NCBI RefSeq assembly: GCF_964213995.1
Contig: NC_135807.1
Coordinates: 69,254,001-69,318,000, forward strand
Source of the DNA: Mustelus asterias
Lineage: Eukaryota
Direction: 5' to 3'
DNA: 64,000 bases
The notes below the pieces were generated by a model. It made no database searches. It was given only the letters and a program-made list of their open reading frames with translations, and was not told the origin of the DNA. A program made the translations under genes and the position numbers. Shown one piece after another: positions 8,209 to 53,599 of this stretch; positions within the stretch are counted from its first letter, which is position 1; every line of letters begins with the position of its first letter.

Positions 8209-9929
8209 GGACTTGTAGCATATGCAGAACACCTGTTTCATACCCCATTTATCAAATTATATTTGGGGAAAGATTCAATACTCAAATTGCAGAAAACTTT
8301 CCAGGTGTTTTACATGTTTTGGCTACCAGTTCTGTAGAGAAAATGAGTGTGGGTGAGGGAAAGTCCCACTTACTTGCTGCTGCCTAAGCTTCCTTTGCCC
8401 TCCCTGGACAATCCGATACTGCTTTCACCTTGTTCAAGATAACTATCACTAAAAGAACATTCCAGTTCTCTGCGACTAGGTCAGCCAATTCTGACCTGGC
8501 ATGAGACTGAATGATGTCACCCCCTGATGTGCTCCAGCCTCATTAGCAGCAGACCCCCTCCTGTCCTTTGATTTTCTCTTTCTTTTCCTTGGCCTCCCAG
8601 AAGATGTGGCCACAGAGTTAAGTGCAGTTGAAAGACTCCTGTGCGGTGGTCAGCGGGAACAAACAGCATAACCTCTCCAATCCATTCGATCGTGGGTTTC
8701 CCCCTGTCCTTGCTGCCCCTCCGATCATAGATTCTGGGTAGAATTTTTTTGGAAGAATTCCAAGTGTTGAATTCGCGTGAAAACTAGAGTAATTCATGCT
8801 GGATTTTTCAGTGGGAGTTCAGAGAAGAATCTCCCACACTCTGTGCAATGCAGAAGCCACCAGCGTGAATATCATTAAATTCCAGGGGGCGAAGCCTATT
8901 CCTACGGGAGAGGCTGAAATCAGTGCGCTGAGCGGGCCACTGTGCATTCTGACCTGTCAGTGTTGAGATCAGTGCATGTGTAGTGGCCATGCACTAACGG
9001 CCCCCCGATTGCTGGCCAGCCCTGCGACCGCTGCAATGCTGGCTATCTACCCTCCACCCCATGGCCCGTTTGCTGTCCCCCTGACCATTCCCGGGCTCAG
9101 CCTCAACCCCCGCATTCCCAGTCTGCTCCAGCTCCCCCTCCCCCCCCCGACAGCTACCACCCCTGCAGTCCCCAACCCCCCGCCCCCCAGAGTGCTGACT
9201 GCCCCAGTCCCCCTGACTGCCCCAGCCCCCCCCGATCGCTGGCCTCCCTCCTTCCCCCAACAATCCCTATGCAGAGTGGCAGCGGGACCCGCCCACCGAT
9301 CGCTCCCTTGGCACTGCCACATTAGGCTCCACCCCTATATCCCCACCCCCCCCGGCACTGCCCCATGTCCGATGGGCAGTGCCTAGGTGCCCTGGGCATT
9401 AGCACTTTGCCCCCTGGGCAGTGCCAGGGACATAGGCTGGCACTACCAGGGTGCCAATGCCCAGGGGCCACCCCTCCATCACCCAACCTCTGGGGGTGCC
9501 CTAATTGCACCCCCTCCTTCCACTCCAGCATGGTTGGGCCGCTAGTTCCCCAAAAGTGGGGATGTACGGTAATCCCCGCTGGAGTGAACCACTGGTGGGG
9601 TGGAGGGAGATGCTAGCGGGCCCGGAGACTTCAGTCCTGAGCCCCAAGCTAATCACATTCAAATGAGATTAAAATGACCATGTTAATGATCTTTGAGCCT
9701 CCCCGCCGATTTCTGGCGCGGAGCAGACGCCACCGGAAATCTGGTGCTGGGAGATGTTAGTGGGGCGCGAACGCACACTTGAACTCCATGAATCGGCCCT
9801 TGTGACAATCTTCCGCCCGCTGCGCTAGAAAATTAGGATGTGGAGATGCAGGCGTTGGACTGGAGTAAACACAGTAAGAAGTCTAACAACACCAGGTTAT
9901 AGTCCAACAGGTTTATTTGGTAGCAAAAG

Positions 9930-9968
9930 CCACGAGCTTTCGGAACAGGCTGTCCCTTCGTCAGGTAG
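9930..9968 (-). ncRNA. Minimal hammerhead ribozyme motif (inverted pLTR copy)
   Basis: Minus strand reads CUAC-CUGACGA-A-GGGACA GCC UGUUCC-GAAA-GCUC-GUGG. Confidence 0.7.
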
Positions 9969-11491
9969 GTGGGAGTTCTGATTACAAACGGCACAAAGAC
10001 ACGATCTCAATTTACATGAATAATGATTGGAATGTGAGCCTTTACAGCTAATCAAGTCTTAAAGGTCCAGACAATGTGAGTGAAAGGAACATTAAGCACA
10101 GGTTAAAGAGATGTGTATTGTCTCCAGACAGGACAGCTAGTGAGATTTAGCACATCCAGGCAGGTTGTGGGGGTTACAGATAGTGTGACATGAACCCAAT
10201 ATCCCGGTTGAGGCTGTCCTCATGTGTGCGGAACCTGGCTATCAGTCTCTGCTCAGCGACTCTGTGCTGTCGTGTGTCGTGAAGGCCGCCTTGGAGAACG
10301 CTTACCACTCACCATGGACTACTCTCCGGAATCGGTTGCATTCTTGGACACACGCATCTCCATTAAGGACGGTCACCTCAGCACTTCACTGTACCGCAAG
10401 CCCACGGATAACCTCACGATGCTCCACTTCTCCAGCTTCCACCCTAAACACGTTAAAGAAGCCATCCCCTACGGACAAGCCCTCCGTATACACAGGATCT
10501 GCTCGGATGAGGAGGATCGCAACAGACACCTCCAGACGCTGAAAGATGCCCTCATAAGAACAGGATATGGCGCTCGACTCATCAATCAACAGTTCCGACG
10601 CGCCACAGCGAAAAACCGCACCGACCTCCTCAGAAGACAAACACGGGACACGGTGGACAGAGTACCCTTCGTTGTCCAGTACTTCCCCGGAGTGGAGAAG
10701 CTACGACATCTCTTCCAGAGTCTTCAACATTTTATTGATGAAGACGAACATCTCGCCAAGGTCATCCCCACACCTTGCTTTCAAACAACCGCACAACATC
10801 AAACAGACCATTGTCCGCAGCAAACTACCCAGCCTTCAGGAGAACAGTGACCACGGCACCACACAACCCTGCCACAGCAACCTCTGCAAGACATGCCGGA
10901 TCATCGACACGGATGCCATCATCTCATGCGAAAACACCATCCACCAGTACACGGTACATACTCTTGCAACTCGGCCAACGTTGTCTACCTGTTACGCTGC
11001 AGGAAAGGATGTCCCGAGGCATGGTACATTGGGGAAATCATGCAGACGCTACGACAACGGATGAATGAACACCGCTCGACAATCACCAAGCAGGAGTGTT
11101 CTCTTCCTGTTGGGGAGCACTTCAGCGGTCACGGGCATTCAGCCTCTGATCTCTGGGTAAGCGTTCTCCAAGGCGGCCTTCACTACACACGACAGCGCAT
11201 AGTCACTGAGCAGAGACTGATAGCCAGGGTCCGCACACATGAGGACGGCCTCAACTGGGATATTGGGTTCATGTCACACTATCTGTAGCCCCCACAACCT
11301 GCCTGGATGTGCAAAATCTCACTAGCTGTCCTGTCTGGAGACAATACACATCTCTTTAACCTGTGCTTAATGCTCCACTCACATTGTCTGTACCTTTAAG
11401 ACTTGATTCGTTGTAAAGGCTCACATTCCAATCATTATTCATGTAAATTGAGTTTGTGTCTTTGTGCCCTGTTTGTAATCAGAACTCCCAC

Positions 11492-11530
11492 CCACCTGAC
11501 GAAGGGACAGCCTGTTCCGAAAGCTCGTGG
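11492..11530 (+). ncRNA. Minimal type I hammerhead ribozyme motif
   Basis: CCAC-CUGACGA-A-GGGACA GCC UGUUCC-GAAA-GCUC-GUGG: intact core, stem I CCAC/GUGG, 6-bp stem II, palindromic AGCU stem III. Confidence 0.8.
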
Positions 11531-12552
11531 TTTTTGCTACCAAATAAACCTGTTGGACTTTAACCTGGTGTTGCTAGAAAATTAGCCCCTGTCTCTGGAT
11601 GAGTGGCAAGAGCAAAAGGAGAGAACCTGTGATTCAAGGAACTGGAGCAATGACAAACTCGGGAACTGCCTGCATAATCTTGTCTCCTTCTTTTCTCCAG
11701 TAGATTGCATGCAATAAGTCTGAGCAACGTTAAGAGATGATAGCATGAGATTTTCAAATGATAGCCCTCAGCAGTACACGAACACCTGCAGCAGTGCTGG
11801 ATGACCTTTACAGATCAATCAGCATGAGGGAGAGAGGAACTGGCAAAGATAGCATCACATGTAGCAACTGGAAAACCACTTTGGCAAGAAAATCATCTTG
11901 ACAAACAAACTACCTGAAATCAAAGAACAAAAGGAAGAACTTGTCTCTATCCAGTGTGTAAGAGACAGAATCTGTGTTTGGAGGAGAAGCTCTGTCTTTC
12001 CAACACCTGCTGTTCCTCTAATCGGTGCTCTGCTGTCAATTCCTGCTCTCAGCATTTGACAGCTTTTTTAAAAACACACAGTTGTTGAGAGCAGGAAGGA
12101 GCTTTGTACAGATTTGTAGTTGACTGACTTTTAAAACTGTCAGTTTAACTGCAGTGACTGACACTTCAAGAGTTGGTCATTGACTGCAAAATGCTTTGGA
12201 ATGTGTTGTGATCATGGAAGGTGCTACATAAATCCAATACTTTATTATCTGACTCGGAATTTGCACCAACATTTAACACATTCTCTCGAGAAATGCAAAC
12301 ATCACATTGTATTATACATGATACAAATTTCAACTCATTGATGGTGTGTTTCATTACAACCTCTTGGGCAGTTGATAACAGATGGTAATTATTTTTGCTT
12401 GACTCTATTTTAGAGATACGTCCGATTGGCTGATTTCAGGGTTGTTACTGAGAGAATAGCTTGAAGCTTTCCATACCTCTGGCAGTTTGAGGAGGTGGAT
12501 AGGTCATGTTCTAAGCTGGCTGCTCAGCCTGGACAACAGCAAGACACCATTT

Positions 12553-32379: not shown

Positions 32380-32648
32380 TACAGGCTGACCTGTCTGAAG
32401 ACAATACACATCTCTTTAACCTGTGCTTAATGCTGTCTCCACTCACATTGTTTGTTACTTTAAGACTTGATTATCTGTAAAGACTGCATTCCAATCATTA
32501 TTCTGTAAATTGAGTTTGTGTCTCTGTATGCCCTGTTTGTGAGCAGATCTCCACTCCACCTGATGAAGGGGCAGTGCTCCGAAAGCTAGTGGCATTTGCT
32601 ACCAACTAAACCTGTTGGACTTTAACCTGGTGTTGTTAAACTTCTTAC
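32380..32648 (+). mobile_element. Penelope pLTR fragment with hammerhead motif at 32556-32592
   Basis: Homologous to 11320-11572. Motif CCAC-CUGAUGA-A-GGGGC AGU GCUCC-GAAA-GCUA-GUGG. TSD TGATCATAGCAAT at 32367-32379 and 32649-32661. Confidence 0.85.
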
Positions 32649-32857
32649 TGATCATAGCAATACCACAGGGCCAAATCTGCAACTGCCTCTATCTGTTCCC
32701 CCACTGAGCTGCTTGCTTCTGTCAGCAAACACACACAGATAGATCAAACAAAAGGACATTCTAACCAAGGCTCCACCCTAAATCACTATCTTTATGGCAA
32801 TATGCCTTCCTTTGGGGTGGGCACAAACATAAATGTAAACATATTAGTTTACCTTCA

Positions 32858-34315: not shown

Positions 34316-34595
34316 CTAATAGTAAATAAAATAAAAACTTGAATTAGGGCCACAAAAAGGAGGGCTCCTTCAGTGCTGCCTTGCTGTATTAGAATGCAGC
34401 TGGAGTTTGGTGAAACAGGGAGTTGGGTGAAAGAGGGGGATGATGATCCTTTCTTTTCTCCAATTGGTGAATCCTGCTCTTTAAGATAAAAGTAAGGTCT
34501 TGGGGAATTTGGATCATGAGGAGAAAGAAGGACTTAAAGTAGCTCTTACAATACAGAGCACTGGAGGTTGGAGAGTAAGTCTGGTGAGGAGCAGC

Positions 34596-34801
34596 CGTGA
34601 TGTAAACACAGTAAGAGTTTTAACAACACCAGGTTAAAGTCCAACAGGTTTATTTGGTAGCAAATGCCATTAGCTTTCGGAGTGCTGCTCCTTCGTCAGA
34701 TATCCACTCCATCTGATGAAGGAGCAGTGCTCCGAAAGCTAATGGCATTTGCTACCAAATAAACCTGTTGGACTTTAACCTGATGTTGTTAAAACTCTTA
34801 C
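34596..34801. mobile_element. ~200-bp palindromic Penelope-derived mini element with a hammerhead motif on each strand
   Basis: 34610-34701 is the reverse complement of 34711-34803. Motifs at 34667-34702 (-) and 34709-34745 (+). TSD TGAGGAGCAGC at 34585-34595 and 34802-34812. Confidence 0.88.
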
Positions 34802-34959
34802 TGAGGAGCAGCTGAGCAGAGCAGCGGGAAAACTTTAAAAGGAGCGACCCAGCGAACCTTCCCCTTCACACAGTCCTGAGGCAGAGGTCCTGAGGTAAAG
34901 TCAAGATTCAAAAGAGACGAAGGGCAAGTAGAAGCTCTGATTGGGTGAGTACAGACTTT

Positions 34960-36898: not shown

Positions 36899-36981
36899 AT
36901 GGCAGATCTGAGTGTCTGGATTGTGAGTGTGCTGGCGGGGTTGTCACTCGGCTTGTTCCTGCTGCTAAGGATCAGGAGAAG
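36899..36981 (+). CDS. CYP7A1-like P450, coding exon 1 (ER signal-anchor)
   Basis: Kozak-like ACAATGG; MADLSVWIVSVLAGLSLGLFLLLRIRR(R), hydrophobic anchor plus basic cluster. Ends in phase 2 at AAG|GCGAGT, matching exon 2. Confidence 0.8.
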
Positions 36982-37296
36982 GCGAGTGCACATTTTTGTT
37001 ACTGTCTCTGTTTTAGATTCTTGGCAAAACCTTTTGTAGCGGTAGTCCCTTTGCAGTCAAACAAAGATCCATTAGTAAATCTTAGAATAATAGAAATTTA
37101 CTTCACAGGAAGGGACTAAAGAGCCCAAGCTAAGCTTTCATTTAGTCTCATTCCCATGGCCTTTCCTCATAATATTTCCACATCTTTTTTCCACATCTTT
37201 ATCCACTTTCCTTTTAAATGCTATTATGAATTCTGCTCCCATCAGTGTTTCTGACAAAGCTTTCCAGGGATGATTCGTCTGGCCACTATACTCTGT

Positions 37297-38219
37297 AAGA
37301 AGTCTCACAACACCAGGTTAAAGTCCAACAGGTTTATTTGGTAGCAAAATCCACAAGCTTTCGGAGTGCTGCCCCTTCATCAGGTGAGTGGGAGTTCTGT
37401 TCACAAACAGGGCATATAAAGACACAAACTCAATTTACAAAATAATGGTTGGAATGCGAGTCTTTATAGGTAATCAAGTCTTAAAGGTACAGACAATGTG
37501 AGTGGAGAGAGGGTTAAGCACAGGTTAAAGAGATGTGTATTGTCTCCAAACAGGACAGTTAGTGAGATTTTGCAATCCCAGACAAGTCATGGGAGTTACA
37601 GATAGTGTAACATGAACCCAAGATCCAGGTTGAGGCCGTCCTCGCGTGCGGAACTTGGCTATCAGTGGCTTCCTGGGCTTGCAAAATCTCACTAACTGTC
37701 CTGTCTGGTGACCATACACATCTCTTTAACCTGTGCTTAACAGTTAGTGAGATTTTGCAAGCCCAGGAAGCCACTGATAGCCAAGTTCCGCGCACATGAG
37801 GACGGCCTCAACCGGGATCTTGGGTTCATGTTACACTATCTGTAACTCCCACGACTTGTCTGGGATTGCAAAATCTCACTAACTGCCCTGTCTGGAGACA
37901 ATGCACATCTCTTTAACCTGTGCTTAACGTTCGCTCCACTCACATTGTCTGTACCTTTAAGACTTGATTACCTATAAAGACTCGCATTCCAACCATTATT
38001 TTGTAAATTGAGTTTGTCTTCATATGCCCTGTTTGTGAACAGAGCTCCCACTTACCTGACGAAGGAGCAGCGCTCCGAAAGCTAATGGATTTTGCTACCA
38101 AATAAACCTGTTGGACTTTAACCTGGTGTTGTGAGACTTCTTACTGTGTTTACCCCAGTCCAACACTGGCATCTCCACATCATCACTGGCATCAACACTG
38201 GCATCTCCACATCATCACT
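37297..38219. mobile_element. ~850-bp fold-back Penelope-derived element with hammerhead motifs on both strands
   Basis: Arm 37295-37699 is the reverse complement of 37740-38144. Motifs at 37351-37387 (-) and 38052-38088 (+). Candidate TSD TACTCTGT at 37289 and 38220. Confidence 0.88.
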
Positions 38220-51820: not shown

Positions 51821-52061
51821 ACAAGAGGGAGAGCCTCCAGTTGAAAATGGCTGGATTCCGTATATCGGTTGTGCTTTAGAGTTTGGTGCAGATCCTCTGA
51901 AGTTTCTGCAAACTCGCCAGAAGAAATACGGTGATGCTTTTACATGTAAAATAGCTGGGAACTTCATCACTTTCATCACTGACCCCTTCTCATACAGCTC
52001 TGTAATTCGACACGGAAAAAATCTTGATTTCCAGACCATTGCAATAAAGATTTCAAGAAGG
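51821..52061 (+). CDS. CYP7A1-like exon 2 (241 nt)
   Basis: cttttcacAG|A CAA GAG GGA GAG CCT CCA; QEGEPPVENGWIPYIGCALEFGADPLKFLQ...KISRR|GTAAGA. Same length as exon 2 of human CYP7A1. Confidence 0.95.
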
Positions 52062-53599
52062 GTAAGAGATCCTGCTTGTTTTCTGAAGTACTGCCTAAGT
52101 ATGTTAGGGAGAAAAAGAAACTGTGCAGCTCTTCTGCTCTTTGCTCCCCTCGAGAGATCAGATGTGGGTTTCAGAGTTTTAAACCAGCCTTTATTATGAG
52201 CTATAGCAAGCGATCTAGTGGCTCCAACACTGACCTCTGCAGCGGGAAACACTCCACGTTCACACCGCCACCACAGGTCTAAGTCCCTAGATGGGAGAAT
52301 TCTGCCCTCTCTCATTATGGCAAACATCAGCCCTGTGACAATTACATTAGCCACTAACTAAGCCTGATACTAGTTCTTACAGCAACCCCTCAAACTGTGA
52401 CAAATACCAATTAACTGACAATGGCTTATGTAATCACTAACTTCCAAGCAAGTGCCTACTCCTAGCTCACTCTCCTAACAACTGCCCCTCCCCCCCCGCC
52501 CCAACACCCCTCACTCCCTGAAGTAAGTGTCCTGTGCATGTCCTCACTGCGCATGCCAATAGTATATCCCTTTAGCAAGTAGCTTTTGCAACATTTAGCT
52601 CCAGTAGATACACCTAAAATCAACACAACCAAAATACTTCCTACCCAATATTTGCAACTCGTGACCAATGGAAAGAGTTCCCCTGACTTCTCCTCAACAA
52701 CCTAAGCAGATGCCCTGGTACATCTAGCCCTGGGGCCATTCAGCCTTAGCTTCTGTTTACATCTAATGGTAGGCTCACTGAGCCCAAATGTGCAAATTGT
52801 CCCAGCTACAACCTCCGTTCACTCCTGTTTTCTTTCCCCCCTTAAAGTTACATAACATCTGACACTTAAAAAGATGGCAACTTTAAGACTCAATAACCAC
52901 ATAAAAATGATGCATACAAAATGAGGCTTTTCATCACAAAACTTAAGTACAGTTTGATAGTTTAAGATTAATTAATTGTACCAATGAGATGACGTCTACC
53001 TGATGAGTAGCTGAAACTTAGTTTAAGAGAAAAGTAACTGTGTTTTAGGAACAAAAGAAAAGGGAAGGTGTGACGATGTTCACAAGCGAGAGATGGGTGC
53101 AGGTGCAATTGTGCCCTCTGTTGTAAACTGCCAAATTTTGGCGAGCTTAGGCTCCTCTCCCTGCTGGTGGGAAACAGATCTACCATTATTTTTTCACAGA
53201 ATGATTCAATAAGATTCAATTTTTAAGTCACCTGAAGAAACAGTGTGATTCTCTCCCGTTAACACGCTCGTTCGATACTTAGAATTGTTTTGGCAAGATC
53301 GCCCCTATGTTTCATCTTAAACAATATTCAATCCAGCCAAAATTACAACTCATAAAACTTGTGAATATTAATCATCAGATACTTTAAAGGTGAGGTTATC
53401 AGTCTTTCGATTCCAAAATGTGAACATTCTAAACGCAGGTGACCAAAGGGTGAAATTGAGGTGATGTGATTGTTTTTACTGGTCACCATAGAAACCAAGC
53501 AATGGCATTTGTGTGCCTTTTCCATAAGACAAAACAAGTTAGCAGATGCAGCAAAATTGACTGTATCTGCATTTCTTTGCTATATCTATTTTATATCCC

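Follow-up and report, generated by a model that had tools for sequence, protein, structure and literature searches.

The 206-nt insert at positions 34596-34801 of the window (the whole 64-kb stretch of DNA analysed here) is a head-to-head pair of truncated Neptune/Nematis-type PLE ends lying within one TSD. We regard it, with a probability of about 0.8, as the outcome of a single abortive insertion in which both nicks primed reverse transcription and the two cDNAs were joined by microhomology, leaving a structure that could probably not copy itself as one piece; that it is a by-product of PLE insertion, all routes taken together, is very likely. The palindrome is frequent debris from a known class of retrotransposon, its head-to-head architecture has already been published, and it is neither a one-off nor a member of a discrete family. 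As a single insert it matters little; its value lies in what the class tells us about PLE integration and ribozyme use, the tens of thousands of young copies giving nucleotide-level statistics on integration and on the role of the hammerhead.

Architecture of the insert

The first-pass annotation had described a near-perfect inverted repeat around a centre of about 9 nt, and this is borne out: two 93-nt arms (34609-34701 and 34711-34803), complementary at 89 of 93 positions and with three of the four mismatches being CpG-type changes, enclose the 9-nt centre ATCCACTCC. The 11-bp TSD that it reported is equally real, the exact 11-mer TGAGGAGCAGC standing at both ends of the insert (34585-34595 and 34802-34812) and nowhere else in the 64-kb window, and with the whole palindrome inside this one exact TSD, the claim that it inserted as one unit holds. 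The insert is nonetheless asymmetric, with a remnant of the PLE tail on the left arm only (34598-34608). Relatives carry a 35-nt extension on one arm, of which, in a by-eye comparison, the window copy retains the two ends, the middle 25 nt being gone; the extension corresponds to the PLE tail, placed by PMC11167929 between two start sites of reverse transcription. A DNA-like contig from run X15, which may be the source sample, agrees with 34507-34627 at every position and spans the left junction, and no empty-site allele was seen among the read-contig joints listed for the locus. The features of the locus are as follows.

34585-34595, + strand: left TSD, 11 bp
34596-34597, no strand: CG dinucleotide, unlike the TSD and only partly like the tail end, possibly untemplated (from the sequence)
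34598-34608, - strand: PLE tail remnant (outer reverse-transcription start site); an internal deletion of 25 nt, seen by comparison with relatives, is found in this copy alone of the 37 with this junction
34609-34701, - strand: left arm, a truncated PLE pLTR end, sense on the - strand, ending 2 nt 5' of the hammerhead core
34671-34699, - strand: minimal type I hammerhead core whose helix I is damaged (two Watson-Crick pairs and one G-U), predicted cut between 34671 and 34670
34697-34715, + strand: junction CAGAT-ATCCACTCC-ATCTG, native parent sequence, in which CAGAT (34697-34701) is the 5-nt microhomology common to both arms
34709-34745, + strand: complete minimal type I hammerhead, helix I 34709-34712/34742-34745, predicted cut after 34741
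34711-34801, + strand: right arm, a truncated PLE pLTR end that ends at the inner start site (CTTAC) and has no tail
34802-34812, + strand: right TSD; its initial TG is shared with the element end, a 2-nt microhomology

The parent element

The arms are the end of a repeat that occurs eight times in the window, and two pairs of these repeats form longer inverted insertions with TSDs of their own (9837-11573 and 37287-38181). Both are inverted PLE pairs with one tail each and TSDs of 12-13 bp; the first encloses a frameshifted remnant of RT thumb, linker and GIY-YIG, while the second, whose tail is partly duplicated, lies just inside the first intron of a CYP7-family gene.

The same pLTR end stands behind a 418-aa frame at locus L203 that has RT motifs, a CX4CxxC linker (present also in the window frames) and a GIY-YIG domain with two internal cysteines. 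In Pfam the L203-type frame matched RVT_1 (E 2.9e-6) and GIY-YIG (E 3.7e-4), both slightly short of the curated cut-offs, and the three frameshifted window frames gave no match. A search for the full-length parent by extension of eight loci gave longer RT frames, with no ORF start found. The likeness to Neptune and Nematis lies in this combination, a pLTR of the same family behind a frame of RT, CX4CxxC and GIY-YIG; a CX2-5CxxC linker ahead of GIY-YIG is what defines these types in PMC8557442, and by that definition the parent would be a PLE of Neptune or Nematis type. The attribution of the insert to the PLE system stands, its arms matching pLTR ends behind RT-EN frames, and the insert has what marks a truncated inverted pair of an EN+ PLE: a pLTR end belonging to an RT and GIY-YIG frame, head-to-head ends, a tail of 30-40 nt on one side only, kept here as a remnant on the left, and a short, variable TSD.

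Inverted-pLTR insertions of EN+ PLEs, as described for D. virilis Penelope and for Pen2 and Pen3 of Adineta vaga (PMC3846280, PMC8557442, PMC2377424), resemble the insert in their head-to-head ends, one-arm tail, short TSD and self-complementary junction. The insert differs from those described there in having no ORF between the arms, in the length of both arms (about 100 nt) and in being one of thousands of copies rather than a handful.

Hammerhead motifs and predicted RNA fold

Each arm bears CUGA.GA, a 5-bp helix II and GAAAGCUA, with cores at 34713-34741 on the + strand and 34699-34671 on the - strand. The earlier claim of a hammerhead in each arm, in opposite orientation, is thus right as to the cores, but only the + strand motif has a full helix I. 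That hammerhead (34709-34745) consists of CUGAUGA, the 5-bp helix II, GAAA, a palindromic AGCU and a 4-bp helix I; its - strand counterpart, whose helix I is mostly gone because the junction removed it, keeps two Watson-Crick pairs and one G-U there, short of the 4-5 bp of a minimal type I motif. Assignment to the minimal PLE type was by pattern and pairing, the motif type being that described in PMC4209133; an Rfam search at E of at most 1 returned no hammerhead, its sole match being a chance one to mir-81. Among 42 copies with native upstream sequence, helix I positions 1 to 4 are paired in 41, 42, 41 and 36 and position 5 in 4, and the first pair is U-A in 32 and C-G in 8, these being counts of sequences and not of events.

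With the metazoan PLE minimal type I hammerheads, as PMC4209133 describes them, the motifs have in common a short helix I, one base after G8-A9, a G-C pair closing helix II, a palindromic helix III region and the occurrence as an opposite-strand pair from truncated PLEs. Opposite-strand pairs of minimal hammerheads 100-700 bp apart in Schistosoma mansoni are ascribed there to truncated PLEs; in the insert, by comparison, the cores are only 13 nt apart, helix II has 5 bp and one helix I has been destroyed by the junction.

The RNA of the insert is predicted to fold at -173.4 kcal/mol (z -24.6; 0 of 200 shuffles equally stable), and forcing the hammerhead fold in place of this rod would cost a predicted 55.7 kcal/mol on the + strand and 44.1 kcal/mol on the - strand. 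The antisense arm is transcribed first, whichever strand is read, so that the ribozyme emerges into its own complement, and the predicted rod would sequester both hammerheads. Minimal hammerheads require a second same-sense copy, according to PMC4209133; the unit is without one, and a single cut per strand gives no unit-length monomer. The likeness to viroid-like RNAs or retrozymes proposed by the first-pass annotation is not supported, given one sense ribozyme per strand, the lack of a tandem array, the antisense arm being made first and the existence of hammerhead-free palindromes that are equally common. Some viroid-like RNAs do carry a ribozyme in each polarity, and the insert is like them in its predicted rod and its hammerhead motif per strand; it is unlike them in being linear, genomic and TSD-flanked, with no multimer, and in that its two motifs are perfect complements of each other and mask one another. 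In the description of bioRxiv 10.64898/2026.07.22.740005, a retrozyme consists of head-to-tail repeats and has two or more ribozymes of the same sense, and the insert shares with the non-LTR retrozymes described there a non-coding, PLE-derived sequence and a type I hammerhead, but it is head-to-head, with one hammerhead per strand and no tandem same-sense pair. The hammerheads would be passengers from the pLTR.

Abundance of palindromes in the genome

The 13-nt hammerhead core has 94,266 exact matches in the genome, against 145 for a control. Double-core palindromes number 4,087 genome-wide with a core-to-core gap of 0-30 nt and 2,009 with a gap of 31-60 nt, and palindromes joined further 3' number 4,780 and 4,994 for the same two gap classes, although the two anchor sets are different subfamilies and the pairs of counts are comparable only roughly. 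The 4,780 are too short for a core, with none in the 50 listed, and the 50 listed of the 4,994 have no core or one. Among consecutive young arms, 46 of 70 had an inverted partner, at distances from 15 to 1,870 nt. Thousands of such near-perfect hairpins could feed double-stranded RNA silencing or be unstable as DNA.

The first 50 double-core palindromes on contig C1 have 49 distinct centres; one tail is present in 46, two in none, and 4 are without a tail. A TSD of at least 8 nt was scored in 42 of these 50 and in 36 of the 37 copies with the exact junction of the insert, one mismatch being tolerated, and the lengths run slightly long. Strict matching finds extra sequence in 35 of the 50 centres, a figure inflated by the incomplete parent set. 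Many of the listed centres hold short repeats copied from the adjoining arm ends, which resemble the templated insertions made by alternative end joining. The same unusual 38-nt centre is present in two palindromes that lie 1.5 Mb apart (G000:C1:50425815 and 51897037). In the open-access literature we found no report of mass mini-palindromes, of dual-priming statistics or of copy ends at the cut site.

The recurrent junction

The exact junction of the window copy occurs 37 times in the genome, and all 37 occurrences, when examined, had distinct TSD strings. Many copies with one junction and different TSDs were what the first-pass annotation had put forward as the sign of a replicating family; the pattern is there in 37 of 37, but it is not decisive, for the microhomology of the parent regenerates the junction. 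The parent pLTR reads GCAGAT-ATCCACTCC-ATCTGA, and the two arms share a 5-nt overlap at the junction, which is the longest microhomology when compared with the first 50 palindromes; because the 5-nt hairpin CAGAT/ATCTG pre-exists in the parent, the junction can recur independently. A hammerhead-free junction at another microhomology, found in 6 of 30 copies sampled from 2,739, or about 550 genome-wide, is some 15 times commoner than the exact junction, and its recurrence too means that identical junctions arise without copying of a unit. Identical junctions with distinct TSDs do not, then, prove a replicating family, and the window copy is an example.

The 37 copies make up 0.9% of the 4,087 double-core palindromes. 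They comprise 23 of subfamily A, 13 of subfamily B and one mixed, with several loop variants common to the one junction, and 35 of them have exactly one tail; the tail is on the left in 24, on the right in 11 and on both sides in one, and none was scored in the window copy, which has the left remnant. The copy with one arm of each subfamily (L094), which has two tails and no TSD, is probably a recombinant between two palindromes and hence a possible rearrangement breakpoint.

Comparison of the arms across the 37 copies gave no clear sign of inherited asymmetry at non-CpG sites, where 540 of 2,000 arm swaps reached the observed value, same-side arms being no closer than cross-side ones; with all sites the figure was 119 of 2,000 and with subfamily A alone 129 of 2,000. 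Small values in this test are noisy, as the first-50 set, in which left and right are arbitrary, gave 46 of 2,000. At core position 5, a CpG site, 10 of the exact copies read C/T and 2 read T/C (p 0.04), and the tails of subfamily A are biased in side, 17 left and 5 right.

Two palindromes 1.8 kb apart (L044 and L045, G000:C1:460763 and 462548) have in common an unusual centre with private changes. Their TSDs differ and their tails are on opposite arms, so that neither is a simple copy of the other; centres may thus pass between copies, in this case possibly by gene conversion between hairpins.

Origin of the palindrome

Under the dual-priming reading, the PLE protein would nick both target strands about 11 nt apart, and ordinary PLE RNA would be reverse-transcribed from the 3' end at each nick, starting for one strand at the outer site, which includes the tail, and for the other at the inner site (CTTAC). 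Both cDNAs would halt just 5' of the hammerhead, in what appears to be a favoured stopping zone, and their ends would anneal through the 5-nt CAGAT/ATCTG microhomology and be filled in; elsewhere the cDNA ends would join by microhomology or with added bases. Joining of either kind is as in alternative end joining. L1 twin priming likewise uses both target strands as primers and joins the cDNAs by microhomology, but those cDNAs cover different segments of the RNA, whereas here the same segment would be copied from two adjacent start sites.

A PLE protein of the Poseidon clade, a different clade from the one here, cuts and extends both strands in vitro and starts at two sites, as reported in PMC11167929, and inverted pLTRs with a tail on one, a TSD of 8-10 bp, head-to-head ends and palindromes at the junction are described in PMC3846280. 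Of 70 consecutive young arms, one was dropped for failed alignment; ends fell within the first 30 nt 5' of the core in 19 of 63 arms, within the following 30 nt in 8 of 44 and inside the ribozyme body in 6 of 69, and per nt they are more frequent in the first zone than in the last (p 0.002). The tail arm, predicted to be the shorter, is so in 25 copies against 11 of the exact set (p 0.03), and in 25 against 15 of the first 50 (p 0.15, not significant). A single sharp transcription start was considered as the cause of the short class, pLTR promoters being known to start transcription in D. virilis (PMC2377424), but is not supported: the stopping zone of the young family is about 60 nt wide, unlike a point start. 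In older families the stops seem to fall no more than about 8 nt from the core. Immediately 5' of the core itself, the parent pLTRs and the window (34697-34712) have CCACTCC, which we take to be initiator-like, and a pyrimidine-rich run ending in CAG, which we take to be splice-acceptor-like.

The chief competitor is self-priming, in which one cDNA folds back at CAGAT/ATCTG, or the RT switches to its own cDNA, and copies itself. The necessary 5-nt hairpin exists in the parent pLTR, junction palindromes of rotifer PLEs were interpreted in this way in PMC3846280, and the arms within a copy are closer than random overall (0.024 against 0.062; 0 of 2,000), a likeness that is seen in subfamily B (0 of 2,000) and is not beyond chance in subfamily A (1,327 of 2,000), and the two arms may derive from one RNA or from two. 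We nevertheless think it unlikely. In 25 of the 36 one-tail exact copies, the window copy included, the tail belongs to the arm that self-priming would have produced second, which counts against it because a copy cannot hold sequence absent from its template; a tail on the arm without the centre could not have been copied from the other arm, and a second priming event would therefore be needed. Five copies of subfamily A also differ between their arms at a C/G site, and the extra sequence in many centres, even with the strict figure inflated as noted above, tells in the same direction.

That the identical-junction palindromes are instead a non-autonomous family whose transcripts, with a ribozyme in each polarity, are re-inserted in full by the PLE protein, we judge very unlikely, though the 37 identical junctions with distinct TSDs, the tail bias and C/T asymmetry and the centre common to L044 and L045 can all be read in its favour. 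A family should not combine two subfamilies and several loop variants on one junction with a tail on either arm, and its junction, 0.9% of the class, is predicted from the parent; hammerhead-free palindromes are as numerous, and the energetic cost of the hammerhead fold, the prior transcription of the antisense arm on both strands and the requirement of minimal hammerheads for a same-sense partner (PMC4209133) weigh against it as well. The discrete family of the first-pass annotation is accordingly disfavoured, and its alternative, a by-product of insertion, is supported except in being called one-off, since there are thousands of such pairs; a unique junction, with different centres elsewhere, had been expected of such a by-product, and although 49 of 50 sampled centres are distinct, this junction recurs 37 times. 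That a longer inverted pair was inserted first and later lost its middle through a deletion at the microhomology is scarcely credible: long inverted pairs are common and microhomology deletions are seen in these copies (the tail of the window copy; L088 and L089), but solo copies end in the same zone too (e.g. L224 and L284) and added sequence is often present in the centres, observations that are still compatible with deletion at this one copy.

Copy ends at the predicted ribozyme cut site

Exact pattern counts fall from 54,414 to 48,253 on crossing the predicted cut (-11.3%) and to 46,670 over the next three bases (-3.3%), the drop at the cut being due in part to mutation and to another linker family. 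The 8% of cut-site ends obtained by subtracting 3.3% from 11.3% is too high, for the 7 that failed among the first 100 copies were 4 point mutations, 1 other linker family and 2 true ends. A direct genome query gave 2,739 copies deviating at -2, and of the first 30, 17 end at +1 or -1 and 13 continue; the 17 true ends are 6 microhomology junctions, 4 other inverted junctions and 7 others. This puts cut-site ends at about 1,900 copies or 3.5% of the young set. The rate per nt is about 1.7%, against 0.31% for the ribozyme body and no more than 1.1% for the adjacent step.

In a census of 83 short palindromes, from which 10 ambiguous loci were set aside, 45 had unambiguous long linkers; among their 90 arms 18 end at -1/+1 (five of them of the microhomology type and at least one a misread point mutation), 7 at +2 and 2 each at -2, -3 and -4. 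Older short-linker loci, in a small sample of 28, have no cut-site peak. Examples of copies that end at the predicted cut are L121, L143, L244, L256 and L267.

Run-off on cleaved RNA would explain this excess, as could pausing at helix I or a bias towards microhomology, and the ends are a possible genomic trace of in vivo cleavage. Most copies cross the predicted cut site, and uncut or re-ligated RNA as the main template is consistent with this. We tentatively suggest, putting the odds somewhat short of even, that the palindromes may be a genome-wide fossil record in which every PLE insertion was dual-primed at the two start sites, with a minority of copies, about 1,900 of them in the young subfamilies, templated by hammerhead-cut RNA. 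If so, this would point to a weak minimal hammerhead that cleaves in vivo and to its 3' product serving as template. Hammerhead cleavage is dispensable in vitro, with no reads ending at the cut in the experiments that PMC11167929 describes, and the account of minimal PLE hammerheads in PMC4209133 offers no in vivo evidence for them.

Genomic neighbourhood

The insert lies upstream of a CYP7-like cholesterol-hydroxylase gene, as first annotated at about 2.1 kb from the ATG; the ATG is at 36899, 2,098 nt from the insert, and the next exon has CYP7A1 as its best PDB match (E 8.6e-25). The gene (36899; 51831-52100) has a first intron of about 15 kb and may be CYP7A1 or CYP7B1. At 32385-32650 there is a solo PLE end with a 13-bp TSD, adjoining a local duplication of 31 nt, the source of the chance Rfam match to mir-81, and at L228 long LTR-retroelement frames (protease, RT and integrase-like) stand beside a PLE copy.
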